From Pseudogymnoascus verrucosus (taxonomy: Eukaryota): DNA of 64,000 nt. The notes beneath the pieces were generated by a model that ran no database searches, was not told the DNA's origin, and saw nothing but the letters and a program-made list of their open reading frames with translations. Shown here piece after piece: positions 39,017 to 64,000 of this stretch (position 1 is the stretch's first letter; each line of letters begins with the position of its first letter). The stretch lies in assembly GCA_001662655.1 (NCBI GenBank), contig KV460279.1; one strand, written 5' to 3'. The position numbers were made by a program, and so were the translations under genes.

Positions 39017-40528
39017 ATGTGTTGTGTGTACATGTCGAAGCCGGCCTAGGCGGCGATGTCCTTGAGTTCTTGTCAGGTCTTTCTGTTGGGTTTCTTAAAG
39101 TGCATGGCAGCTCAGCTGGAGGCGCTGGTGTCCTGTCACCTCGCTTTGTCCGGGAGTTGGACTTATAAAACACACATTTCCAATGGTGATGCCTAGTCGT
39201 GTTGACTGGGATTTTTCACATCATCGTTGTTGGAAATGTATATGTCCAGCTCCCCATTGACAATGCACTCAATGGCTCATACGGAAAGGCCTAACAAAGC
39301 ACTCTTGAGCAACGTCGCTGCGGTCGTTCAATTTCGCACATAGAGCGGTGGAGGAGGAGAATAGTGATATAAGGACGGGATAGAGTCTCAGATAGGCCGC
39401 CAAGAAATTCGAAGGCGAAGCCGGTCGTAGGGTAGAGGGTGCATTTTAAAACGCATGAAGATATCCATTGTATATAGACTCTGGAAGCTGCCGGTAGATC
39501 AACCCCATTGCCGAACGCCGTGGTCCAACGAACCAATGCCTGCACTGCGTGAGGGTGATGTAGGTGACGCACCGTCGGGTGGCTAGAGATCCCGAGGCAT
39601 TTTCTTGCGGTCTCATGGAGAAACGCGGGGCAGCGGGTGAGTTGGTGACTGCCCACTTAATGGCGGGGCGGGGCGGAAAGGGGGATGGGTGGGAGGTGGG
39701 ATGGTCACGCTGCCTCTCACATGCTGTGGGATTCACATGTCAGGTTTGTTTGGAGCTGAGTTTGTCGTAATTGTAAGGGTTCTATACTACAGAAATAAGT
39801 ATGTACTTCGTATTGATAGCTGTTTCATCCAGTATTTAGTCCCATTAGCAGTGTTCGTAGAGTTACAAATATCAAATCCAGACCCCCATATTTCTCCCGT
39901 CCAAAAAAGGAATAGGAAGCCAGCATATTTCGCTTAGTTTCAAATTAGTGGTGCTCGATAGAGTAATAATTATAGTAGCTAACTCCACACGGTCATACGA
40001 TCCAGCTGGCAAAAATGCAAAAAAAACGACACCTGAGTGATTCGAACACTCGCTCCCGAAGGAAATGCCTAAATACTTCCTGTGGAAATAGCAGGGCATC
40101 GCGTTAACCACTCCGCCAAAGTGCCGGATTTGACTTAGTGGCCCTTATGGCGAATTAAATAGGTGTCACGACTCCTCATTTCGAGAACATTGAATCGCAT
40201 ATACATACAAATACATCCAAACTTGATGATTAAAAGGCGATTGATGAAATAATGGTGTAAATTGTAAATTCGCATATACCCCTCTTTGCCCTATGACACA
40301 TCCCATACTCCTCACGAGCTCACGCCATACAACGTCCATAGCATCCAAGCTCCCAACACCCCAAATGTGGGGAAAGCTGACCCAGCCGCTGCGATAACGA
40401 TAACGACCACCAACAGCAGCTCCAGCCCAGCTCTATGTCTCGGAGCCTCCCCGAACCACAAACCACCACCACCCACCACGACAACCACCCCAACCCCTCA
40501 ACACCACCACCACCCCAAACACCACAAA

Positions 40529-41053
40529 ATGGCTGACACCACCCCCTCCCTCCCCGCCCCCGCACCGCCCATCGGGAACTACATCCTAGGCTTCCTCCTA
40601 ATCGGACTGGCCTGGGGCTTCACAACGCCCTTCATCCGCGCGGCCGCGCGCTCGCATAAGCCTCCCGCGCACCCGATTCTCGAGACGGCGGCGGTGAAGG
40701 GGAGTCGGATCCGGAGCGCGGTGTATGGCGCGTTTTTTGGGATTACGGATTTGTTGAGGAATTGGCGGTATGCGGTGCCGTTGGTGGTGAATTTGACGGG
40801 GAGCGTGTGGTTCTTTTTGTTGATTGGGCAGGCTGGTGAGTTCGGAGGGGTTCCGGGTGAGGGATTAGGGATGAGGGCTAATGGATGCATGACAGAATTG
40901 AGTCTTACGGTGCCGATTACGAATTCGCTGGCGTTTTTGTTTACGGTTATTGGGGATTGGTATGTGGAGGGGAAGGTGATTAGTAGGGATACGTGGATTG
41001 GGATGACGTTGAGTTTGGTTGGGATTGGGTTGTGTGTGCAGAGTAAATTGTGA
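40529..41053 (+). CDS. TMEM234-family small membrane protein
   Basis: GLAWGFTTPFIR, YAVPLVVNLTGSVWFF, AELSLTVPITNSLAFLFT after 60-nt intron 40836-40895. Confidence 0.8.
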   Translation: MADTTPSLPAPAPPIGNYILGFLLIGLAWGFTTPFIRAAARSHKPPAHPILETAAVKGSRIRSAVYGAFFGITDLLRNWRYAVPLVVNLTGSVWFFLLIGQAGEFGGVPGEGLGMRANGCMTELSLTVPITNSLAFLFTVIGDWYVEGKVISRDTWIGMTLSLVGIGLCVQSKL

Positions 41054-42774: not shown

Positions 42775-44536
42775 ATGGCTTCGAACAAGATGGCGGCGCC
42801 GCCTGCGGATCTGGCGAAGGAGGACGCGGCTTTTGCTGCTGAGGTTGCCGCTGTTAAGCAGTGGTGGTCGGATTCGAGATGGAGGCAGACCAAGAGGCCG
42901 TTCACTGCCGAGCAGATCGTTTCGAAGAGGGGCACAATCCAAATCAACTACCCCAGCAACAACCAGTCGAAGAAGCTCTGGAACATCCTGGAGCAAAGAT
43001 TCAAGGTATGTTGTATTTTTTTTGTGGCAGTGTGGTGGTGGTGAGAATGTAGCGCTGACATGTGATTCTTAGGAGGGAGATGCGAGTTACACATACGGCT
43101 GCCTCGAGCCAACGATGTTGACCCAGATGGCGAAGTACCTTGATACCGTCTACGTCTCTGGATGGCAATCATCTTCGACCGCCTCGGCGAGCGACGAGCC
43201 CGGCCCAGATTTGGCTGATTACCCATACGTGAGTTGCCCTATATGATAACAGCAGCAGCAGGATCATGGCTAACAAACCTAGACCACCGTCCCCAACAAA
43301 GTGAACCAGCTCTTCATGGCACAACTTTTCCACGACCGCAAGCAGCGCGAGGAGCGCTCTACAACCCCCAAGGCTAACCGCGCTGGCGTGGCCAACATCG
43401 ATTACCTCCGCCCAATCGTTGCTGATGCCGATACCGGACACGGTGGTTTGACCGCCGTCATGAAGCTCACCAAGCTCTTCATTGAGAAGGGTGCTGCTGG
43501 TATCCACATTGAGGACCAGGCCCCTGGTACCAAGAAGTGCGGCCACATGGCCGGTAAGGTCCTGGTCCCAATCAGCGAGCACATCAACCGTCTCGTTGCC
43601 ATCAGAGCCCAGGCCGATATCATGGGCACTGATCTCCTCGCCATTGCCCGCACTGACGCCGAGGCCGCCACCCTGATCACCACCACCATCGACCCCCGCG
43701 ACCACGCCTTCATCCTCGGCACGACCAACCCCAACCTCCAGCCCGTCAACGAGCTCCTCATCAAGGCCCTAGAGGCCGGCAAGACCGGCGGCGAGCTCCA
43801 AGCCATCGAGGATGACTGGAACGCCAAGGCCGGTCTCAAGACCTTCGCCGAGGCCGTCGCCGCCGCCATCACCGCCACCCAGCGCGCAAACGCCAAGTCC
43901 CTCATCGCCAAGTTCACCCAGGAGTCCAAGGGCAAGAGCAACACCGAGGCCCGCGCCATCGCCCGCGCCATCGTCGGCAAGGACGTCTTCTGGGACTGGG
44001 ACAACCCAAGAACCCGCGAGGGTTACTACCGCATGCAGGGCGGCATCGAGTGCGGCATCAACCGCGCTCTCGCCTACGCCCCATACGCCGACGCCATCTG
44101 GATGGAGTCGAAGCTGCCAGACTACAAGCAGGCTGAGGCCTTCGCTAAGGGCGTCCACGCCGTGTACCCCCAGCAGAAGCTCGCGTACAACTTGTCGCCG
44201 TCGTTCAACTGGAAGACTGCGATGCCGCGCGCTGAGCAGGAGACGTACATCAAGCGTCTTGCTAGCCTCGGTTACTGCTGGCAGTTCATCACCCTGGCTG
44301 GTCTGCACACCACTGCTCTTATCTCGGATAAGTTCAGCAGCGCGTACAGCCAGCAGGGCATGCGTGCGTACGGCGAGTTGGTCCAGGAGCCGGAGATGGA
44401 TGGTGGTGTGGATGTGGTTAAGCATCAGAAGTGGTCGGGTGCGAACTATGCGGATGAGTTGCTGAAGATGGTGCAGGGTGGTGTGTCGAGTACGAGTGCT
44501 ATGGGTGCTGGTGTTACGGAGGACCAGTTCAAATGA
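42775..44536 (+). CDS. ICL1: Isocitrate lyase
   Basis: [65 protein letters not shown]. Introns 43006-43072 and ~43229-43283. Confidence 0.97.
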
Positions 44537-45672: not shown

Positions 45673-48600
45673 ATGGCGGAAAAGACGAAAGTCCATTCGG
45701 CGGGCATATTCGCCGATATGACCGTGGACGGTCCGGAGATCGGGACGCTGGTCATTATCGTGGACCGCGCGAAGAACCTGCCCAACCGGAAGTCCATTGG
45801 GAAGCAGGACCCGTACTGTGCGGCGCGACTGGGGAAGGAGGCGAAGAAGACGAACACAGACCGTCGCGGAGGCCAGACGCCGAAGTGGTAAGCTCGCTCG
45901 CGATTTCCTAATTTCCTTCTGTTCGCTGTGCGACGTTGGGTAGTATTGTGTGTCTAACACATGCATCGCAGGGACCAGGAACTCCGTTTCACAGTACACG
46001 ATTCTCCCGACTATTATCAGCTCAAGGTGTCTGTTTTCAATGATGATAAGAAGACGGATCTTATTGGGGAGGCTTGGGTAAACCTCCAAGACGTGCTTGT
46101 GGCGGGTGGTGGCCAGAACGACTTGTGGCATACCCTGAATTGCCGTGGGAAATACGCGGGAGAGATCAGAATCGAAATTACATACTACGACACGAGGCCC
46201 AAGCAGGAGAAGCCGAGAGAGAGAGTTAGAGAAGGCGCACCGAGCACAGTGGAGGGAGGACCCAGAGAGTCCCTGAGCGGACCCAGAGGCCCAAAGGAGA
46301 AAGTGATGAAGAGGAGACCACTGCCGAGCGATCCTACGGGCGCAACACCAAGTCCGATTGAGACGCCGGAGCGGATATTGCCACAGCCCACGAGGGGATA
46401 TACAAATGGAACTCCGGATCACCCGCCTCAGCAGCCTAAAATGCATACTGCGCCAGTACCGGAGTACACTCAATCACCGCAGCCGATCGCATACAACACG
46501 CCCGAGCATGTCCAGCCTGTGCAGCAAAGACAGTATGCTACCCCTGAGCACGTACAAGTTCAGCAACCGCGGGGATCAGCATATAATACGCCGCCGGCCT
46601 ATATCCAGACGCAATCTCCTTTACAAAATCTGGAGTATAACACTCCGACGCATGTCAGGACGCACTCTCAAGTTATCCAAGGGCGATATGGACCTACTGC
46701 AATGGACCAACCACCGCTCCAAACAGACTATAATACCCCGCCACCACATGTTATCCCGCAATCTCACAGCAAGCATGTCTCACCTGCTATCAATAGCTAC
46801 AACCAAGCACCAGGCATGACGCCCGACAGGCACCACCCACGGGACATGTACAACGATAGACATGACGACTATGGCCAGCCAGAGAACTACAACGGAAGCA
46901 ATGTCTCCAGTAGACACGAGGATTCTTACACCCGCAGCCGAAACGATCTTCGGCAGGAGTACGCACCCCAACAAATGACCTACGAGCCTCCTGTTTCGGA
47001 TTACGACCCTCCATCCAGTCCTGAAGGACCACCGCCGCCACCTCCGGTACACAGGGTCCACCAAACCGCTGCCGCGCCTGCATCTAGCCCTGGCTATGGG
47101 TTCCCTCCACCAAACCCAACGAGAGAGGCACAGTTTGATCACTTGAGGCAGGATAGCCAGAGGCAATCCATCCCAGCATATTCTCAGAATGCTCCACAAC
47201 AGCCACAGCCGTACACTCCTCCGCGCCAGCAACATGCTCCGGTGCCGGCACCACCACCGTCGTCGTATGGCCAACAGGACCACTATCAAGGAGCTATCTC
47301 AAGGCATAACTCATATGATGATAGATACCACAACAGCACGTTCAGCTCTATGCAACCAACAGTTGAGGATGCGCCACCATCGCCCACACCGTACGCTACA
47401 GCTTCGCACCGAGCTAGTGAGCCGCAGATGTCGCAATATGGAGATAGACGATATGATGATGTTCCATCCCCGGCGCCTTTGAACTTGAATGGTGGGGGAA
47501 GTACAACATCTGGAAACTATAAGATGAATGCCAATTCATACAACAGCAATGCGTCGCACGAAGTCATTGACAACCGGCAATACAACAACAATGCATCACA
47601 CGAAGTCATTGACAACCGACAATACAACAACAACAATGCATCACACGAAGCCATTGACAACCGACATGCGGATCCCTATTATGACCAGCCACCGCCAGCA
47701 CGGTCATACACACAAGATCCGATTGAGGCACCACAAACTAGCCCAATGCCATCGCTCCCTCCATCGCTGGTAGCCGGCTTTGACCCCCTAATCCAGCGCG
47801 GGATCTCCGACAGGATCCACTCCGACACCCGGCCTAGAGGCGACAGCTACACTCAGTTCTCCGCCGCGCCAACGCACTACTCCGAGTCGCCGCAATCATA
47901 CCAACCCCCGCAACCTCAATACCGCGATGACCACTACACCCAACCCCCCGGCTACCCCCCCCAAGCCGCCCCCTCCGACCGCCAATCCCGCGGCATCCCC
48001 CAAACCTACACCAACGTCATAAAACCCCAACCCGTCTCCCCACACCCCCCTTCCCCCAACCCCTCCCCAAGCCACACCCACACCATCCACCGCAAATCCG
48101 TGTCCCCCGCCCCCCCCTCCCCCTCTCCGCGCCCGCTCTCCTCCTCCGTCCCCTTCGGCCCGGACGACTACTCGTCCCTAAACCCGAACTCACCAGCCGC
48201 GACATCCACCGAGCCCGACCCAGACGCTAAAATCATCCTCTACGACGGCAGGGAAGTCGATCCCTCTGACCACCTCCCTGAGGCGTCGTGGGCGGCTCTG
48301 CCGCCGAATCTGCAGAAGAAACTCGATGCTGCGGGGCGTCAGCGCACCGCGCCCCCTCCTGCTGCTGCGGGGGGGGCGAGGAGGATGGAGAGGCGCGAGA
48401 GACCGATGAGTTCGTATGCAGAGCAGACGCCCCCGCCGGCGTCGCAGGGACGCACGAGGTTGCAGAAGAAGGCGCATAGGGTATCTGCTGCGCCGGTGGG
48501 GGGGTCGAGTCCGCTGGCGCCGATTAGTCCGAATCCGAATCTTTATCAGTCGACGCCTGGGTCGCGGGACGGCGGGGGACGGAGTCTGCCGAGGGCGCAG

Positions 48601-48873
48601 ACTGGGGATTGGGGAGGGGGAGATGGAGGGTATGGAGGGGGGATGAATGGGTATAGTACGGGTTCGCCGGGGTATAGGGGACAGGGACGTGATGGTGGGG
48701 GGCCGCCGCCGGTGCCGGGGAAGGTGCCGATAGGTGGTGTGGGTGCGCCGCCGATGAGTGCGGGGGGGAGGGGGGAGCCACAGGAGAATGCGTGGGCGCT
48801 GTTGGAGGAGATGAAGAGTATTGATCTTGGGAGTGGGAGGGCGAGGAGGAGGAAGGGGGGGGCGGTTGTTTGA
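45673..48873 (+). CDS. INN1: C2-domain cytokinesis ingression protein (Inn1/Fic1)
   Basis: N-terminal C2 domain (RAKNLPNRKSIGKQDPYC...GGQTPKW|DQELRF), long Pro-rich tail with PPPVPGKVP; intron ~45888-45971. Confidence 0.88.
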
Positions 48874-53025: not shown

Positions 53026-53340
53026 TGGTCAATCTCCCGAGACACTGATCTCTATTTTAGGGATGAATCTCGGAGCAACTTGATTTGACATGTAGATCGC
53101 TAATTGTGGCTGGCTATGCTGTCCTCCTCTGGGTAACACGGCGCAGCTATACGAGATGATGGTCAGACATCAGGGTGAGCTGCCCTGACTTTGCCCGATA
53201 TTCTGACAACACGCCCTACACGCTTGTATAAGAAGACTCTAAGGGGACGTCGTCGTCGAAGACGTGTTCTTGCTCATTATCAACGAATAGGAATTGACTG
53301 TATATGCGCATCTACTTGCAAAACGATACAACCTAGCATC

Positions 53341-53961
53341 ATGAAGTTGTCCGCCGCCGTCGCCTCTCTCGCCGGCGCAAGCTCTGCCCTCGCCACCGCC
53401 TTCGAGCTCATGGCGCTGCGACCTGACAGCCCAATCCACCTCGCCCCCTTCAGCGCTGCACAGAGCAACCTCTTCCTACATCTGCCACACCAGAACGCCA
53501 GCTGCGAAGGCGAACACCCCAACCGCGCAACTTTCCACATAAAGCACGGCAGCCTGTTCTTGTACTCTAAGGACGGTGAGACCCAGGAGATCTTTGTCGA
53601 CCGCTCTGGCATGGGTATGTAGACCTGGTACCCTCCCTACACAGCTATATATCGATCGTTAGCTGAATGAGCTTGGGTTTACTAACATGCTTGTTTGTTA
53701 GGCCAAGGCAAGATGGGCTACCTCACGAACAGTCCCTACGTTCCTCCGCATTTCGAGCTCGAAAATTGGCAGATTGACAGTACCGGCGACCTGAGCTTTA
53801 ATGGGAGGACCCTGATTGCTTGTCCCCATTCAATCGATCGGGCATGGAGCCTCTGGGTTGATACTAGCAATCCAACGCCTGGCGGAAACAAGGGATGCTT
53901 ACCCATAATAACCCGCGCAATCCCTGTCAATGATCCTATTAGATGTGATTACAGTCATTGA
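53341..53961 (+). CDS. phiA: Secreted cell wall protein PhiA-like
   Basis: Signal peptide, FELMALRPDSPIH, QNASC, FVDRSGMG|QGKMGY, LIACP...WSLW, PGGNKGCL; intron 53615-53701. Confidence 0.88.
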
Positions 53962-54234: not shown

Positions 54235-57195
54235 CTAGTTAAAGAAACCAGCCTTTGCCAACCCCAGCCAGTTTTTATGCGTGTCTCCAAAACTCAAAAC
54301 CGTGCTCGGTTGGAGCTTCACGTGCGCATACTTGCCACCAGAGAAGAAGTATCCCTCTTCGAAATCCGTTCCCGGCACAAAGGTAAATGCGTCTATCTTT
54401 GTGAATCCCAATAGAGCCAATAGCGGCGAATTAGTCGAGACTTCTGGTTCTGGCTTGCCGTTGTTTTTACCGTAGATACTGTGGACAATTTCCTTCGATC
54501 CGGAAAAGAATGTAGAACAGTTTGGATCGCCTCCCTTCCAATAGTGCGGCACAACGCAATCAATGGACTCGAAGCCGCTCTTCTCCTTCAGACCTTTAAA
54601 CACCATCGTCCAAGGGTTTAACTTGCCTCCCAGGAAGGGTTTTCCAGTCTCCACGTCCATAACTATACATGAATCCCCACTGAAAACCCACGCTACCTTC
54701 TCATCCTTATCTACTGTCAGGACTGCATCGACCCCATTAGGCAAACCCGCTAGCGCGGGCCACATGCCTTTGACTTCAATTGGAGTACCAGTTTTGGTTT
54801 TATCCACGGCGTCAAGACGGAGATATTTTGGACCATCAAAGAAGTACACTTCATTAACCGACCACGGGAGATGCAATATGGCGCGCGGAAGAGGATTTGA
54901 TTTTAGCGGAGGCTTTTGCTCGGGGGATAGGTTGGTCTTCTTGTCAACGCCGTCCGTCGTTTTGTCAAGTACAACAGGATTGGCCTCAACAGGCTTTTTC
55001 TTGGAGTCATCGATCGTTTTATCGAGGTTGTCAGGTTTTAGGTTGGGTCCATTGGTCATTCCATTGGGACGGGCCGTCACGGATCCTGGAAGCGGTGCAG
55101 GTGAAAACACAACAGTTCCGTTCGGGGAAAAGTCCCCAATCTCTTTCTGTCCACCGTCTGCGCGAATGATCCAGTCCACAAAGTCATTAGCTCGCTGCTT
55201 ATTGTTGGCTTTGCTGCCGATGACGAGCTCCGCACGCTTCAGCAGCGGATCTTGGTCGTCATCCTTACCAACAGCCTAAATAAGTGAGCAGATGTTCACG
55301 AATCAACTGGAACATGCTTACAAAGATAGTCAATTCCTTGCGGCTCTCCTCACTTGCAGCATTCCATATACCTGTGTTCAAAGTCAGCAGAGTGTTCAAG
55401 CTGGGTATAAGACAATGTATTGTAATCTGATTGTCATTGTAACCACTCGTTGCTAGTGTGGACCATGTTTCGTGTTTTTGAGATCATAGCACAGATTTAG
55501 GTTCACATACCGCTATCAGTTAAGGTGTATGCGCCGATTATTGCAGCTTCAGCCAAGGTCTCCAAGGCGGAGCTCTCGGAGGACGCATACCAGGATGCTC
55601 CAGCCGAGGCTGATGGTGTCCGACCAATTGCGGACCAGATGGATGATTCCTTAACATTGGACGCGGACCCATCGGAGCGAGATAGGAACACTGTGGAGGA
55701 GCCGGGGTCGGCTTGGAGGCTGGTGTAAAGAGCTGAGAACAGTGCATACACGCTTGTATCGCTGTTCTCTGGGAGTTTCGCTGGATTGTTTTGCGGGCCA
55801 ACCAGCATCCAGTGGTCGCGCCAGCCAGTCTCTCTCCGGTCAATGATACCTTGATTGGTGGCGAGTGTGTCAAGCAAAACACTATCCGTAATGCCAATAT
55901 CGATAATATTCTCGCACAGATAGTCTATAGTGACACCTGAATCCGATGCGTAGAACTCAACAACGAATGGGGTCTCTTTCTTGATCTCGACACAACTATC
56001 AACACACTGTTAGATCATATATATATATGGATGATTGTGAGAGTAGTTACTATTGAAGGTATCCATCAAGCAACTTTACCAGGAGGCCGGACTGATCTGA
56101 CCCGCCCGTTCCAATGCGGAGACCGACGCCACTGCCAGGCCAGCTGTAGATCTGGTCCGGTGTAACGGTGGTACCATTAATTTTGGCGGTGCCACCATCT
56201 ACTGTCCGACGCTGGTACTGAGTACTAGGATAACGTCGGTCTAGTCGTCCATCTTGATCATCTCTGGGATTATAACGCGGCCTAGGATTCCCGTATGGAT
56301 CCCTTTCAGTCTGACGAGCCCAGTCAGGGATCTGGTACTGGTATTTGTTAGTCGCCAGATGGAAGTACTGACTACTAGGATAACGTCGGTCTAGTCGTCC
56401 GTCTTGATCATCTCTGGGATTATAACGCGGCCTAGGATTTCCGTATGGATCCCTTTCAGTCTGACGAGCCCAGTCAGGGATCTGGTACTGGTATTTGTTA
56501 GTCGCCAGATGGAAGTACTGAGAGCTAGGATAACGTCGGTCTAGTCGTCCATCTTGATCATCTCTGGGGTTATAGCGCGGCCTAGGATTCCCGTATGGAT
56601 CTCTTTGAGTCGGACCAGCCCAGTCAGGAATCTGGTACTGGTACTTGTTGGTTGCCAGGTGGAGATAGTGAGAAGGATAATAACACGAGCCATGAGAAGG
56701 ATGATAACACGTGTCATGTCGTCCACCTTGCCCGTTGCTAGGAGGTGGTGGACGCTGCGACTTGTTAAGCGGTTGGACTGGAGCTACTCCTTCTTGGATG
56801 TCATCGCCAGCCGTGTTTGTGACACCACCCTCCCCATCATCAGGATTCGTAACGACGTCGCGGCGTGTGGGGAAGAATGGCTCGGGATTGCGTCGAACGG
56901 GGGGTACAGCATGCATAACCGGCCCAATTGGAAATCCCTAGCCTAAATTAGATCTCCATGTGTAAGAAGGAGCTGTATGATCATAGAAGAGAATTTTTTG
57001 AGTTTGTTGAAGGGGAGCTGTTACTTCTTGCTCTTCTTCTCCGCTAGCATTCACGAACGGTGCACCCTCAGTGGGAGGCCATGGAATTTCAATCCCCATC
57101 TCTTGCGCCTTTCGGATCTCATTTAGGGTGAGCTGTTTGCCATTGTGAAGCTTAAACATCAAATGCAATTGGAATGGTGGAATATCTGTAGCCAT
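54235..57195 (-). CDS. Multidomain protein: 3x50-aa repeats + TupA-like periplasmic-binding domain + hemopexin-like domain (~877 aa)
   Basis: Exons 57195-57025, 56937-56051, 55995-55511, 55371-55322 and 55275-54235 total 2634 nt in one frame. LRIGTGGSDQSGL, RDHWMLVGPQNNPA, FLSRSDGSASNVKESSIW, YTLTDSG, DPLL; then VYFFDGPKY, VDAVL, IDAF, YFFSGGKY blades. The first exon is less certain than the rest. Confidence 0.75.
56215..56680 (-). repeat. Coding tandem repeat, 150-nt/50-aa unit, ~3 copies
   Basis: Period of 150 nt (56215, 56365, 56515); unit RRYPSSQYFHLATNKYQYQIPDWARQTERDPYGNPRPRYNPRDDQDGRLD. Confidence 0.95.
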
Positions 57196-58771
57196 GGTAA
57201 TCGCAGTCCAATGAGTTCTGGTGTTGGAATCGATGTATGGAGGATGGAAATTGGTATATCGGGCACCTTCCAACCTTTATGCAGTAGGGAAGAGTTCTCT
57301 CGCAACTTCTACCTCCTGTCGTGAACCCGAAATGCTCTTGCTCACACTCATTCTGTGGCTGGCTGATGTACAGCGTCGTCAGCTGCGCAAAGCTGTGTCC
57401 GCAGCTCCTGCGTTCATTCATCCAGTCTCAGTTGACACTTGCCAACCCTGCATCTGCTTAACGCACTCTTTGGCTGACTGAGAGCCAATAAAGATAGGCA
57501 TGGTAACATCGAACGGTTCCTCATTGTTGCAGCTCTTCTGTCCTTCTTCACTGGTCGCTCAGCGCAAGCCACCGCCCGTTTTGTAACCGTGTCCAAGCTG
57601 AATCGCCGTAAGAAGGTGCCCGCCGTATGCGGGTGGTGGAATTGTTAAGCATTCAATGCTGCATCTGGTGCTAATTTGCTAACCACGACCACTCAGCACG
57701 TCCCATTGCCCACAGTTGCGAGCTGGACAAATTGAGGTCGGAGAGATATGCAATCTATCGAAAGAGATGGTGTGCATTGCATAATATTCATTGGAGTGGT
57801 GCGGAGTGAAGGAATCCGTTGCCTGGCGACTGGTTCTAGACGCATGCTGTACACCGCTGAAGAATCGTTAGAGTAATGCGGAGTGAAGGATCTGTTGGCT
57901 GGCGACTGCCCCTGATATCCGTAGGTATGCTGCAAAAGCCGTTGTGGCTAGCTGAGAGCTGTGGTGGCTTGCTGGATAGCGGATTCGCCGTTGGGCGTAC
58001 GCTGGCGCCATGTTCACGTCGGGTTTGGCGGGAATGTATGGTTCCCCGCGCGCCGTCCCCGCGTGCCGTCCCCGTGTGGAGAATGGACGGAAAGGACAGG
58101 CTGAAACCCCGCACCTTATTTCACATGGGTTCACAAACAACGCTAAACATAGCAACGAACCCGACTCTGGTCCAAATTCTGGGAATTCATTCTAGCGAGT
58201 AACGAGCGCGCATCAAGTATCCCTAACAGGCCTGACTTCAAGTGCTCTGCGTAGATCTGAAGTATGACCAGTGGGAAACAGCCATCGGAGTTGCCGCTCG
58301 AAAAGGGCATCAAATTATCGTTAAGCGCCTCTTGTCCCCCGGGGAGCCATGTCGAAGGGCTTAGACCTTACTAGACATGCCTCGTTGTGGCTGCATTGCA
58401 TGAACATGCTTCCATTGTTAAAGACACGTTGGATTAGTAGAACGTATTTAAAGGATTGAGATTTATTTTAGGGTAGTCTTGGGGTGAAGCGAGGGTGGGC
58501 AGGGTGGGCTGGGTGAGCTGGGCGTGTCCATTCTAGTGCCAAACCTGGTATTGAGCTCGACTCCTGAGGCCCTTGGTGTCACTCTAACGGAATATATTGA
58601 TAACGTTCGTGGCTTTGGCAATATCCTGGCAGCTATGACCTGCGATTGTAACAAGTACTACCATTACGTCATGATCATGAACAGTTAGTTGTTTAATCAG
58701 CATCCACCATCACCTTATCGTCACGATTAATCTATCACTCATGCTGCGTTCAATGCAACGACTCACAAAAT

Positions 58772-59609
58772 ATGGTTAGTAAAAAGCCCCATCAAATGTC
58801 AAATCTAAAAGCTGATCCTCATTCCATTTATTTCCTAGGTATCGACACGCGCCAGCTCTAAGCGCAAACGCTCATCTTCTACAGGAGATGACCAGAATGT
58901 AGCCGACAACCCTCAACCCAAACGTCGGGGGGAGGATGCCCCAACTCGTCTCAATAAGTCTCAAACAGTAGAGAGTCACGACGGAGTCGTGCTACCAGCG
59001 CAGAAAAAAACTACCACCTCCACACGGCCACCCTCCTCGACGTTTTCTCACCCCATAATATTCACCATTGGCCACGGCACGCGCACACTATCCACCCTGA
59101 TTGATCTCCTCCAATCCGCACATGTCACCAGACTCGTAGACGTCCGCTCGATCCCGAAGTCCTATACAAACCCCCAATTCAATCACGATGATCTAGTCAC
59201 ATCTACCGAATTAAAGGCAGCCAACATAGAATATATATGGTATGGTGTCAAACTCGGCGGTCGCCGCAACGCACAGCAGCCCAATGTTGAGCAGCATACA
59301 GCCATCCGCGTCACGGCATTTAGGAATTACGCTGGTTATATGAGCACTCAGAACTTTCGAGATGGGTTGGAAGAGCTGAAGGCGTTATGCAAAAAGCCGC
59401 AGAGTAGGGGAGGCCATTTGGTGGCGATCATGTGTAGCGAGACGCTTTGGTGGCGGTGCCATCGGCGGATGATTGCAGATGCGCTGGTAGTAGAAGGATG
59501 GGACGCACAGCATTTAGGCATCAAAAAGGGAGAGCCTATGAAGCATGTCTTGTGGGATATTGTAAGATGTGATGATAACGGGGAATTGATATATGATGTC
59601 AAGTCGTGA
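58772..59609 (+). CDS. DUF488-family protein with N-terminal basic (NLS-like) extension
   Basis: ATG-only first exon, intron 58775-58838, then VSTRASSKRKR...PKRR. Domain motifs IFTIGHGTR, LVDVRSIP, PQFN, LGGRR, FRNYAGYM, IMCSETLWWRCHRRMIAD. Confidence 0.8.
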
Positions 59610-60969: not shown

Positions 60970-62195
60970 TCACGCTATCCTGCCCTCTAAATCGGTATCT
61001 GACGTCTTCTCGCCATGTAAAATCGACCTATAAGATTGATATCGCCTCAGCATTCCTTTGATTTTTAATCTCCTCACCATAAAGAACACCGCTGCCGCAG
61101 CTCCGAGTACGAACAAGGGTATCCACCACTTGGCAGACCTACTTAACGAAACAATTAAAGATGCATCATAAGAGTGCCACGATGAGCTACCAAGATGGTT
61201 GAATATGGGAGTCGAAACAGGGCCGTTCAAGCTGTGCAGCTTGAAGTTGTCCAGGGGTCCAGCAAGGATCTTCAACTCTGATCTATTTGGTTGCAGGGCA
61301 TGGATTGTCCTAGTCATATAAAATCAGTCGGAGGCGCACCTTTCAAGTCGAGCAGCTGCCGCAACTCTGGATAATCACTTACGAAGCATAATGGCACCCC
61401 GTACTGAACATAACAGTCGGATATGGCAATCCAAACCACCGCCTATTATACATCTTCAAACTGCGCACCAACTTCCCCACGAACTCATTCCTTTTACTCG
61501 CCATCATGAACCCAATCGAGAAACCCGTCGGATGTGCCGCTGGAGCAACAAAGCTGAATCTTCGTAGCGGACCTAGCGATCTTGTGCATTTCAGATCCAT
61601 ATCAAGAACAACTCCTGTGCCAAGTCAGCATTAGCATCTAAATACTGTACATATAAACCAATATCCAATTCCCTAAGAGGCAAGAGAGAGCAGAATAATA
61701 CTCACCACCATACTCATACAGCACCATATACCTCAACGCATCAATCCTCTGAATCGTATAACCATACCGCTCCCACATATGCAGCAACTCTGGAAATCTC
61801 TCCCTGACAAAATCTCCCGCATTCCCATCCGTCCACAGCATCGCCTCCCATCCCGGATGCAGCTCCAAACACGCATTCCTCGCATCGATCCATTTCCCCT
61901 GCGGCTTGTGACTCCCCAGCGCAATATGGTGCAGCACAGGTGGGACGAGGTCGCGGTACAACGGACCCGCCGAGTCCTGCGTGCGGCTGTAGTTCGCAAA
62001 GCTGAGATCAAAAGCGTCGCGGTCCGCGTTGGGTGAGATGAGGAAGTCGGGCGCGCCCCGTGGCCAATTAAAGGTTAGGGAGAGGAGGGAGTAGGTCGTG
62101 CAGATCAGGGTGCGGAAATAGTAGAGCGTGAGAATCCCGACAATGATGCCATAGGCGAAGATGATGGGGTGCGTGCGATAGAGTCGTAATGACAT
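60970..62195 (-). CDS. GT32-family glycosyltransferase (IPC-glycosylating, GntA/Sur1-like)
   Basis: N-terminal TM, PPVLHHI, LHPGWEAMLWTD, IQRIDALRYMVLYEYG|GVVLDMD (DxD), VMFSTG, HLGSSSWHSYD, C-terminal TM. Introns 61615-61705 and 61310-61382. Confidence 0.88.
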
Positions 62196-62381
62196 GATTG
62201 GGAACAATTAGTGGTCTAGACGTCGTAAACTCCACGTCTCAGATCATGGCACAACAACCCAAAATGCTAAAATTGGAGCTTCGGGAGCTTGTTTTTTCAC
62301 GCTGGAAGTGATTGGGGGGTTTGGTGCTTATATATGTGGAACGGAAGCCTCGGAAGGCCAAACGAGTAACGGGAATTATGA

Positions 62382-63493
62382 TTAAGCTTTGTCCTCTATG
62401 CTAGGTACCTTTTTTAGGTCATTAAACCACACATACCGGCTCAAAACTAGATACAAGTGCCGATCCCACGAGTACTGGCTATTGTGGTTGCGGAAGGCAC
62501 TGCGAGTCTTCATGTATCGATGCCACGTATTGGCAACCAGCGCTTTGTGGCTGTAGCTGAGACCCGCCACAGGGGATGGGAAAGCCATCGCTTCCAAGAT
62601 GCGCCAGGTAAAGGGTAATGCGGTCAGAGTGAGGTCACCGAGAAAGGTGTATTTGCGGAGAAGGGTGGTTGTGGTGACCATGTAAGCGATGGGAGCTTCT
62701 CCATTGGTCGATGCATAATTGCTAGGGAGTGAACATGAGCTTCGCGTTCGGAGCCAATCAGGTGAGGCGGGTGGAGGGAGACAAGGCGAATTTACCTTAT
62801 AGCGGCGCTAACAGCCCTGTGGTTTATATGTCCGGAGATCCCGCCTGAATCAAATGTGAGGATCTGAATTGGAGAATGCTGTCAGTGACATTCCCAAAGC
62901 ATATAAATGATTGTTGTTGGGAAGAGAGAACTTACAGCGTCAATGTCCCATTTGTGGACATACTCGGTCACGATGCTTTGGATGAGATCCGTATTCCACC
63001 ATACCGTTGGATTATCCTGCAATTCGGCTTCATCTAGTGCGACGCATCTAGCCAGGTCGATGCCCAGCGACTCACAGGAGCCTCTCAGCTCCTCTTTCCT
63101 CGTCTCGCCAATCCCAGTATTATTCCCTGCAACAGAGTCAAACCCCGAATATCCACTTCCTGCCTATGCAACCTCACCTGTAGACATAACCAGCAAGCCT
63201 CCTCTAACATCATGATTCCTGTCTAGCACCCCTAAAATGCTCGGTGCGAAGAACAAACACTCATCGTCAGGATGCGCAGTCACGATCAGCAAATTCTTCG
63301 CACCCTGTAGTGAGGATGGTAAGAGCCTTGCATCGCTGCCTACCAGGTATCCGATCAGCCATTGTAAGAACAGTGGCAGCACCAGGAGGATCGGCGCGAT
63401 GCGCATTATCCAGCGCCAGGCGTGCCTTGAGAGTCTGCTGATAAGCCTGGATGCGGTGGGTCGTAGCATCGGTAATGGCTTAAATGCGTACAT
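62382..63493 (-). CDS. PIG-L/LmbE-family GlcNAc de-N-acetylase (DacA/Gpi12-like)
   Basis: Four exons; TM anchor, LIVTAHPDDECLFFAPSI, R.EEL..SC, LQDNP, ILTFDSGGISGHINH, LLRKY, HNSQYSWDRHLYLVLSRYVWFNDL. Confidence 0.88.
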
Positions 63494-64000
63494 GAGGCAA
63501 GGAGGTGGTTAAGTCCGGACTGACTGTCGAGCGTAGTTAATAGAGACAGAAGTAAGTGGATAGGAAGTTTATCTTATGCGGTGAATTGTGATGTGGTAGG
63601 CTCTGCGTGGCCTGGAATGCTCGGAAGTTGCAGTTAGCTCTGTCGTCTGATATTCACTGGGATATGCGACGGGGAGCAAATAAGGTTGGGGTTGACGTAT
63701 TAAGCTTTCACTACTGACGCTAGAGGCCCATCTCACGCTTGGCAGTGCTGACGTACGGTACAACCACGAATGCGTCCGCTCTAGGTGAGGGTAAGGGCGG
63801 CGCATTGTTTTACAATCGTTGACTGTGCATTCGGCAATTGCCGTATTTTATTCTGAAGCTGTTGTCAGGATTCCGGCAAAAATGCAGGGCATGCGAACTG
63901 CGGCGGATTGAAGAATTCGATGTCGCATCTCTCGTAATTTCGTGCTTACGCGTCACTTTGACGTCGTTACGATTAGTGAATCGCGCAAGCCGCTTACTCG

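Follow-up and report, generated by a model that had tools for sequence, protein, structure and literature searches.

A five-exon gene joins a PBP-like domain to a hemopexin-like propeller

In a 64,000-nt stretch of contig KV460279.1 of Pseudogymnoascus verrucosus (assembly GCA_001662655.1; the whole stretch is called the window below), we analyzed a minus-strand gene whose predicted product carries a type-II periplasmic-binding-protein (PBP)-like domain followed by a hemopexin-like four-blade propeller. Four minus-strand stop-to-stop frames (56938-57276, 56050-56937, 55503-56009 and 54235-55275) are connected by splice signals located in the sequence into five exons, and their in-phase join gives a coding sequence (CDS) of 2634 nt (877 residues plus stop). 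This reproduces exactly, coordinates and strand included, the model of an initial annotation made from the sequence letters, which had joined four frames and a 50-nt exon in phase into a protein of about 877 residues. The start and the junctions are identical in the annotated orthologue P0001. CTAAY-like branch sites are present in three of the four introns (CTAAT, CTAAC and CTGAC), and none was found in the 46-nt intron. The features of the locus are as follows:

54235..57195, minus strand: whole gene from start codon to stop codon, 877-residue product (spliced model)
57025..57195, minus strand: exon 1, residues 1-57, conserved N-terminus, predicted helical hairpin (spliced model)
56938..57024, minus strand: intron 1, 87 nt, GT..AG (model; skipped by a contig of run X2)
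56051..56937, minus strand: exon 2, residues 58-353, a single open frame carrying the disordered arm with its repeats and the first part of the PBP domain
56224..56673, minus strand: three tandem 50-residue repeats, residues 146-295, in an arm rich in P, R, D, Y, G and Q (peptide copies)
55087..56142, minus strand: type-II PBP-like domain, residues 323-594, containing introns 2-4 (3cvg_A match, AlphaFold2 and Foldseek on P0001)
55996..56050, minus strand: intron 2, 55 nt, GT..AG (model; skipped by contigs of runs X1 and X4)
55511..55995, minus strand: exon 3, core of the PBP domain (Pfam PBP_like_2)
55372..55510, minus strand: intron 3, 139 nt, GT..AG (model; skipped by a contig of run X1)
55322..55371, minus strand: exon 4, 50 nt, residues 515-531 of the PBP domain (model; an X1 contig joins exons 3, 4 and 5)
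55276..55321, minus strand: intron 4, 46 nt, GT..AG (model; skipped by a contig of run X1)
54235..55275, minus strand: exon 5, C-terminal part of the PBP domain, linker, hemopexin-like propeller and stop in one 346-residue open frame
54889..55086, minus strand: linker, residues 595-660, predicted disordered (residues 509-566 of P0001 at low model confidence)
54238..54888, minus strand: hemopexin-like four-blade propeller, residues 661-877 (Pfam Hemopexin, AlphaFold2 and Foldseek)

The gene is expressed and spliced as one unit

Ten public sequencing runs have words in common with the window, and the contigs of four of these (X1, X2, X4 and X9) were compared with it. X4 is metatranscriptomic RNA on record, X1 and X2 are RNA by guess, and X9, whose long contigs retain the introns, behaves as DNA. 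The contigs are 90-99% alike to the window and thus belong to close relatives. All four introns are skipped: 87 nt at 56936/57024 in an X2 contig (intron 1), 55 nt at 55995/56051 in X1 and X4 contigs (intron 2), 139 nt at 55367/55507 in an X1 contig (intron 3) and 46 nt at 55274/55321 in an X1 contig (intron 4). Each of the skips has the plus-strand ends CT..AC, which are GT..AG on the gene strand. Exons 3, 4 and 5 are joined in a single X1 contig, and the linker is bridged by contigs of X4 (54299-55176) and X1 (54566-55186) that reach into both the propeller and the PBP part. Stretches left uncovered in a single run were not taken as absence, with X2 and X4 each covering less than half of the bins. 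These data show that the gene is expressed and spliced, with one mRNA encoding the N-terminus, arm, PBP domain, linker and propeller.

No single contig spans the whole mRNA, as would be seen if two or three neighbouring genes had been wrongly joined in the model, but such an error is extremely improbable. Exon 2 reaches from the arm into the PBP domain, whose first motif (LRIGTGGSDQSGLL) it encodes, and exon 5 carries the passage from the PBP domain to the propeller; since both module boundaries thus fall within single uninterrupted exons, the fusion does not result from an error in the gene model. The four observed splice joints and the contigs that cross the linker also speak against such an error, as do the distant fusion protein P0160 and its cluster mate P0162, which are open frames of 621-633 residues on 2.2-kb contigs.

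Two joints in X1 contigs are non-canonical. The first, at 54406/54485, is an in-frame skip of 78 nt with CC..GG ends inside the propeller, and the second, at 55995/56053, is a 57-nt skip at intron 2 accompanied by two other letters. Both may be variants of other strains or assembly artefacts.

Two folded modules are separated by disordered segments

The orthologue P0001 (786 residues, one repeat, 96% identical over exon 5) was used as a stand-in for the PDB sequence search, structure prediction with AlphaFold2 (on a 64-row alignment) and structure comparison with Foldseek. Five parts make up the protein: a short N-terminal helical region, a disordered arm (about 250 residues), the PBP-II domain, a disordered linker (66 residues) and the four-blade propeller. 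In the P0001 model, the predicted local distance difference test score (pLDDT) is mostly above 90 for residues 215-508 (PBP domain) and about 90 for residues 567-786 (propeller), where four strand groups are found. It falls below 50 for residues 39-206 (the arm including the repeat) and 509-566 (linker). The N-terminus of P0001 is predicted to form helices at residues 7-17 and 24-32 (pLDDT about 78-84), and exon 1 is identical to P0001 at 55 of 57 residues. Pfam detected no family above the cut-off on exons 1 and 2, and the arm gave only sub-threshold noise with Pfam and NCBIfam.

The two folds named by the initial annotation were therefore recovered in one polypeptide of P0001 by AlphaFold2 and Foldseek, and both corresponding Pfam families pass their cut-offs on the window protein, PBP_like_2 (PF12849) on exon 3 alone with 34.2 bits (cut-off 27, E 3e-08) and Hemopexin (PF00045) on exon 5 with 26.8 bits (cut-off 21.3). 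Its statement that signal peptide and transmembrane segment are lacking was also borne out, as neither a signal-like hydrophobic N-terminus nor a transmembrane-like segment was found (best 19-residue Kyte-Doolittle mean 1.26).

The PBP-propeller unit recurs in several lineages

A search of a library of 1.84 billion representatives gave 853 matches at E<=0.001, and the best 150 of these 853 are described here. They are mostly PBP-only proteins of about 250-350 residues, and the named ones are fungal (Monilinia, Mollisia, Aspergillus and Emmonsia); a smaller hemopexin-only set is also present. Four annotated Pseudogymnoascus orthologues were detected (the fourth, P0163, has 776 residues), all of them "hypothetical protein". 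Judged by the highest identities to named proteins, the window belongs to Pseudogymnoascus or a close relative. In four further clusters (P0026, P0034, P0044 and P0106), the last 20-45 residues of a PBP domain (...ANxFxDWxIRxDGGQxVIxxFxxNGxxxYxxAP) are followed by a propeller, and by their sequence these are last-exon fragments of fusion proteins from other organisms.

Using a word-index search, we found the more distant fusion protein P0160 (621 residues), which is 37% identical to P0001 over 565 residues across both domains (E 1e-115). The identities are 119/269 in the PBP domain, 88/211 in the propeller and 6/45 aligned positions in the linker, and the propeller matches Pfam Hemopexin with 30.0 bits. 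P0160 and its 633-residue cluster mate P0162 are open frames on transcript-sized contigs of 2209 and 2230 nt, and shorter pieces of the same protein (P0023 and P0161) are encoded on a 193-kb contig, a distribution that fits an intron-split eukaryotic gene. A word-index search limited to proteins of 607-2000 residues, a range that leaves out fusions of about 520-600 residues, returned only three Pseudogymnoascus proteins. Metagenome contig scans with P0160 and with exon 5 gave no confirmed locus.

We placed the PBP domains in a maximum-likelihood tree of 57 rows, from which P0002 was left out because of an internal gap in its annotated model. In this tree the fusions (the window protein, P0001, P0003, P0163 and P0160) form one clade inside the fungal group with a Shimodaira-Hasegawa-like approximate likelihood ratio test (SH-aLRT) support of 100, which fits a single origin of the PBP-hemopexin fusion. 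The window domain lies inside a fungus-type clade (support 99) whose named rows are all fungal, apart from rows with the TTTS-type loop of TupA (see below). Three hemopexin-only rows (P0075, P0108 and P0114) are misaligned noise on a branch of length 4.69.

Our results show that the PBP-propeller unit is conserved in several lineages, and that the combination is rare. The architecture recurs in the orthologues, in P0160 and in the four fragment clusters and is thus not unique to this genome. The remark of the initial annotation that it knew of no described protein combining the two domains agrees with our literature searches, which returned no paper on the PBP-hemopexin combination or on the fungal PBP family.

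Stand-alone PBP and hemopexin-like genes could also have been joined recently and by chance, leaving a fusion in which the two parts share no function. In favour of this, the linker shows little conservation in addition to its length and disorder, fungi commonly have PBP proteins of about 300 residues that stand alone (Atlas matches for P0160 at 0.88, below 0.9, being leads only), and stand-alone hemopexin-like proteins exist. Against this stand the domain order, kept in P0160 at 37% identity and repeated in the four further fragment clusters, the full support of the fusion PBP clade and the expression and splicing of the gene, and we regard a fusion that is not functionally integrated as improbable.

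A fungal PBP-like domain that resembles TupA in outline

Solute-binding (Venus-flytrap) domains are textbook parts of bacterial transporters. Among PDB sequences, P0001 matches 3cvg_A, annotated as a "putative metal binding protein", with E 3.1e-56 (residues 230-502 on 13-284 of 294, 273 residues), followed by TupA 5my5 (7.5e-10), 3muq and 3lr1. The Foldseek template modelling (TM) scores, normalised to the target, are 0.93 to 3cvg_A and 0.81 to both TupA 5my5 and 3lr1. The 3cvg structure is a structural-genomics entry, probably from Coccidioides immitis, and a full-text literature search for the code gave four papers, none of which deals with the 3cvg protein by title or abstract.

The window protein shares with 3cvg and the stand-alone fungal PBP_like_2 proteins (about 300 residues) the motifs LRIG.GG..QSGL, RDH..LVGP..NPA, FLSR.D.SA.N.KE, YTLTD and GQ..I..F. 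The initial annotation had read such motifs as the pattern of tungstate-binding TupA-like proteins and their stand-alone fungal homologues; they are the consensus of the fungal PBP family. Tungstate specificity is not supported, as the TupA equivalog model of NCBIfam (NF041772) gives 19.9 bits against a cut-off of 400 on the 161 residues of exon 3. In contrast to 3cvg and most relatives, which are single-domain proteins, the window protein adds an arm and a propeller, and it has TGGS and TD in place of the NGGA and TY of the fungal 3cvg family.

PMC5517513 gives the TupA pocket as Thr9-11/Ser12 (TTTS), His59, Arg118, Thr124 and Asp170, and reports that R118E abolishes binding. We mapped these residues by a phmmer alignment to 5my5 (chain numbering offset by 23 from the paper) and by an alignment of the PBP rows (A1):

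TupA TTTS: T334-G-G-S337 in the window protein, N-G-G-A in most fungal members and V-V-P-D in P0160
TupA His59: Asp390 in the window protein, Tyr in most fungal members
TupA Arg118: Arg459, kept
TupA Thr124: Ser465, conservative
TupA Asp170: Asp513, kept

TTTS-type rows align in the same columns as T334-G-G-S337 in A1. Two of the five pocket features are thus altered in the window protein, with the Ser of TTTS kept. The comparison with the TupA structures (5my5 and 3lr1; PMC5517513) therefore gives a common type-II PBP fold with Arg118, Asp170 and the motif Ser retained and Thr124 replaced by Ser. The window protein differs from TupA in being about 24% identical, in having Gly-Gly for the middle Thr-Thr and Asp for His59, and in being neither periplasmic nor provided with a transporter partner. 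A TupBC-type context is absent, with no transporter genes among the neighbours scanned at 40-64 kb and no signal-like N-terminus. Judged by its sequence, the domain resembles a small-anion clamp in outline, yet is not a TupA. A eukaryotic PBP_like_2 domain is likewise fused to another module in the chytrid glutamate-type G-protein-coupled receptor SPPG_06488 (PMC3251606), where it is N-terminal and a presumed ligand sensor; that protein is a membrane receptor, whereas the window protein has no transmembrane segment.

A single hemopexin-like propeller

In mammalian hemopexin, heme is held between two propeller domains by two histidines. Pfam and AlphaFold2 detect only one propeller domain in the protein studied here, so the two-domain bis-His heme site cannot form. 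The blade motifs pointed out in the initial annotation (YFF.G..Y and (I/V)DA) correspond to the consensus of the propeller blades. By Foldseek, the P0001 propeller has TM scores (target) of 0.72-0.75 to the plant albumins 6ix1, 3oyo, 3s18 and 3lp9 and to the MMP-14 hemopexin domain, and its C-terminal part matches the plant hemopexin-fold sequences 6ix1 and 3oyo with E about 1e-6. Plant hemopexin-fold albumins are reported to bind heme or spermine/polyamines. The seed albumins of the PA2 type (6ix1, 3oyo CP4, 3s18/3v6n from chickpea and 3lp9 LS24) likewise consist of a single four-blade propeller of about 220 residues; unlike the window propeller, to which they are about 22% identical, they stand alone.

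A variable arm and unequal constraint

Tandem Repeats Finder detected the array in the arm as a 150-nt unit in 3.0 copies at 56215-56663 (93% matches). Pairwise comparisons of the copies gave synonymous to non-synonymous differences of 12:5, 12:5 and 4:0, and this excess of synonymous differences suggests that the repeat peptide is under selection. The window has three copies, P0163, P0005 and the more distant fragment P0019 have two, P0001 and P0002 one and the annotated P0003 none. The arm and its repeats are absent from the distant fusion P0160, and in the whole-library search the arm region was matched, among the matches listed, only by Pseudogymnoascus-like fragments. The arm is therefore likely to be a lineage-specific addition outside the conserved core.

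Because RR occurs at the unit boundaries, a Kex2-processed precursor or one of the type that yields ribosomally synthesized and post-translationally modified peptides was considered for the repeats and rejected, given the lack of a signal peptide and the in-frame continuation of the repeats into folded domains. Just upstream of the 150-nt array, at 56669-56718, a smaller tandem repeat (24 nt in 2.1 copies) encodes the arm stretch CYHPSHGSCYYPSH.

Comparison of the window with the contigs gave 148 differences, of which the 40 best supported were classified, three of them lying outside the CDS. The synonymous and non-synonymous counts, a rough measure taken from this subset and from contigs of relatives, are as follows:

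PBP domain: 7 synonymous, 1 non-synonymous
Linker: 2 synonymous, 5 non-synonymous
Propeller: 8 synonymous, 12 non-synonymous (three of these in the last codon)
Arm: 1 synonymous, 1 non-synonymous

Identity to P0163 is 255/272 in the PBP domain, 55/66 in the linker and 176/214 in the propeller. By this rough measure, the PBP domain appears to be the most constrained part of the protein, and the propeller appears to evolve faster, as recognition modules often do.

The initial annotation had proposed an intracellular sensor or scavenger of two ligands, with tungstate, molybdate or a related oxyanion as the ligand of the PBP domain, heme as that of the propeller, and the repeats as an assembly arm. 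The closest PBP folds after 3cvg are indeed TupA structures (5my5 and 3lr1), Arg118, Asp170 and the motif Ser are kept, and the nearest solved propeller folds are those of the plant albumins reported to bind heme or spermine. Each part of the proposal nevertheless meets contrary evidence. For the oxyanion, the TupA equivalog score stays far below its cut-off, the TTTS of the anion-nest loop is replaced by TGGS in the window protein, by NGGA in most of the fungal family and by VVPD in P0160, His59 is replaced by Asp, and no ABC-transporter genes are found among the neighbours at 40-64 kb. For heme, the single propeller cannot provide the two-domain bis-His site, and for the assembly arm, the arm is predicted to be disordered, and its repeats vary in number between 0 and 3 in close relatives and are missing from P0160. 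We consider this sensor very unlikely.

Other propeller fusions and hemopexin-like add-ons

Six PBP relatives of 386-560 residues (P0010, P0011, P0014, P0060, P0067 and P0141) have an N-terminal extension with weak Tectonin matches, all below the gathering score. Aspergillus and Emmonsia are among their sources. Five of them are present in the PBP tree (P0060 is not among the 57 rows), where all five fall to the same side of a branch (support 96), away from the hemopexin fusions; the smallest fork holding all five has support 92 and also holds the unlabelled row P0079. One protein, P0011, was folded to check the tectonin-like propeller (mean pLDDT 91.6). It has an all-beta propeller over residues 1-260 that matches UVR8/RCC1 propellers and Laccaria tectonin 2 (5fsb, TM 0.63), and its PBP domain shares 60% identity with 3cvg (TM 0.96). 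By its separate clade, the tectonin-like fusion is independent, and the fungal 3cvg-type domain has thus been joined to a propeller at least twice. The Aspergillus and Emmonsia proteins (P0010, P0011, P0014, P0067 and P0141), likewise annotated as hypothetical proteins, share with the window protein the common fungal PBP family and a beta-propeller; their propeller is N-terminal and belongs to a different class of fold, closest to UVR8/RCC1 and tectonin 2, whereas that of the window protein is C-terminal.

A related hemopexin-like C-terminal part is also found on proteins of toxin families, namely P0123 (Burkholderia, enterotoxin-A family), P0124 (Streptomyces, RIP family) and P0152 (Hebeloma, pierisin/scabin-like), where it stands in the place usually taken by a targeting module. 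As in the window protein, the domain is a C-terminal add-on; the N-terminal part of the toxin-family proteins is an enzymatic toxin domain, in contrast to the binding-protein fold of the window protein, which has no known catalytic role.

These architectures bear on a reading as a defence chimerolectin, in which the propeller would bind glycans of grazers or competitors and deliver or anchor the PBP domain as an effector, for example by nutrient sequestration. Such a protein would work on the principle of AB toxins and of the lectins in the fungal cytoplasm, and the window protein lacks a signal peptide, as do many cytoplasmic fungal lectins. The two independent fusions of the fungal PBP family to lectin-type propellers, the hemopexin-like domains in place of the targeting module on toxin-family proteins and the faster evolution of the propeller relative to the PBP domain are consistent with it, as are the defence role of Laccaria tectonin 2 and the agglutination of cells by a chickpea hemopexin-fold albumin (PMC6359319). 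On the other side, no sugar-binding site was identified, PBP domains are not known as toxic effectors, the neighbouring genes offer no defence context, and the Tectonin matches of the relatives are all below the gathering score. We regard a chimerolectin as rather unlikely.

Among the PBP relatives, the 474-residue protein P0012 carries a C-terminal extension with a weak DUF4082 match (21.4 bits, below the cut-off of 28.4), which might represent a third type of extension in the fungal PBP family.

A soluble modular binding protein as the proposed general reading

We propose, at about even chances, that the gene encodes a soluble, non-secreted modular binding protein in which the PBP domain clamps a small anion, the propeller recognises or tethers, and the arm interacts. 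The PBP domain would close on a small anionic ligand, not specifically tungstate, which Arg459, Ser465 and Asp513 would hold together with the Gly-rich loop T334-G-G-S337. The propeller would act as a second, faster-evolving recognition module, either lectin-like or small-ligand-binding, and would anchor the PBP domain on a partner or surface, with the pair of modules behaving as beads on a string. The lineage-specific arm, variable in copy number, would probably serve as a multivalent interaction region whose peptide sequence is under selection.

Several observations weigh against this proposal. The anion-nest loop varies within the fusion clade, being VVPD in P0160, and anion binding may therefore not be the common function; the position of His59, Asp390 here, is Tyr in most fungal members. 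Literature searches gave no ligand for any member of the fungal PBP family or for any fungal hemopexin-like domain. The cytoplasmic location is read from the absence of a signal, and secretion by an unconventional route may occur. The counts by which the propeller appears to evolve faster are rough, and the mRNA is pieced together from several contigs of runs X1, X2 and X4. Finally, Pfam does not report PBP_like_2 on full-length P0001 (E<=0.001) or on P0163, P0003 and P0160 (E<=0.01), although the fold is clear, which probably explains why the fusion architecture is invisible in routine annotation. For full-length P0163 and P0003, Pfam gives no match of any kind at E<=0.01. As exon 3 alone passes the cut-off but the full-length proteins do not, Pfam-based searches for the architecture would miss this family.

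A wider version of the proposed binding protein, which we hold to be distinctly unlikely, is an unrecognised ascomycete class of cytoplasmic PBP-propeller chimeras, with lectin-type propellers coupled to the 3cvg-type domain at least twice (C-terminal and hemopexin-like, N-terminal and tectonin-like). Here the propeller would be directed at glycans, foreign or self, and the PBP domain would capture a small anion or metabolite there, as an effector or sensor in defence or signalling. If true, this class would be largely hidden from Pfam-based architecture searches.

The initial annotation had called the gene a candidate for an undescribed system, which overstates the case, as neither fold is new and a database entry for the gene, as a hypothetical protein, already exists; what is new is the architecture. 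Literature searches returned no description of a conserved, expressed and signal-less eukaryotic PBP family that is repeatedly coupled to propellers. If the coupling is functional, it would for the first time open a way to the function of the entire fungal 3cvg family, with its hundreds of members and one orphan crystal structure, and a new type of module for fungal lectin or sensor biology.

Neighbouring genes

Neighbours scanned at 40-64 kb of the window include no biosynthetic or transporter cluster and give no functional or defence context. The following were detected:

40268-41053, plus strand: TMEM234
43283-44536, plus strand: isocitrate lyase frame (Pfam ICL, E 1.1e-228)
45958-48873, plus strand: 971-residue open frame with a weak C2-domain match (19.6 bits, below the cut-off of 22)
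58839-59609, plus strand: DUF488, divergent from the gene studied
61638-62207, minus strand: DXD glycosyltransferase fragment
63164-63508, minus strand: PIG-L-like fragment (below the cut-off)

A convergent neighbour at 53179-53961 on the plus strand, composed of two frames without a Pfam match, has the signal-like start MKLSAAVASLAGASSALA and may encode a small secreted protein.

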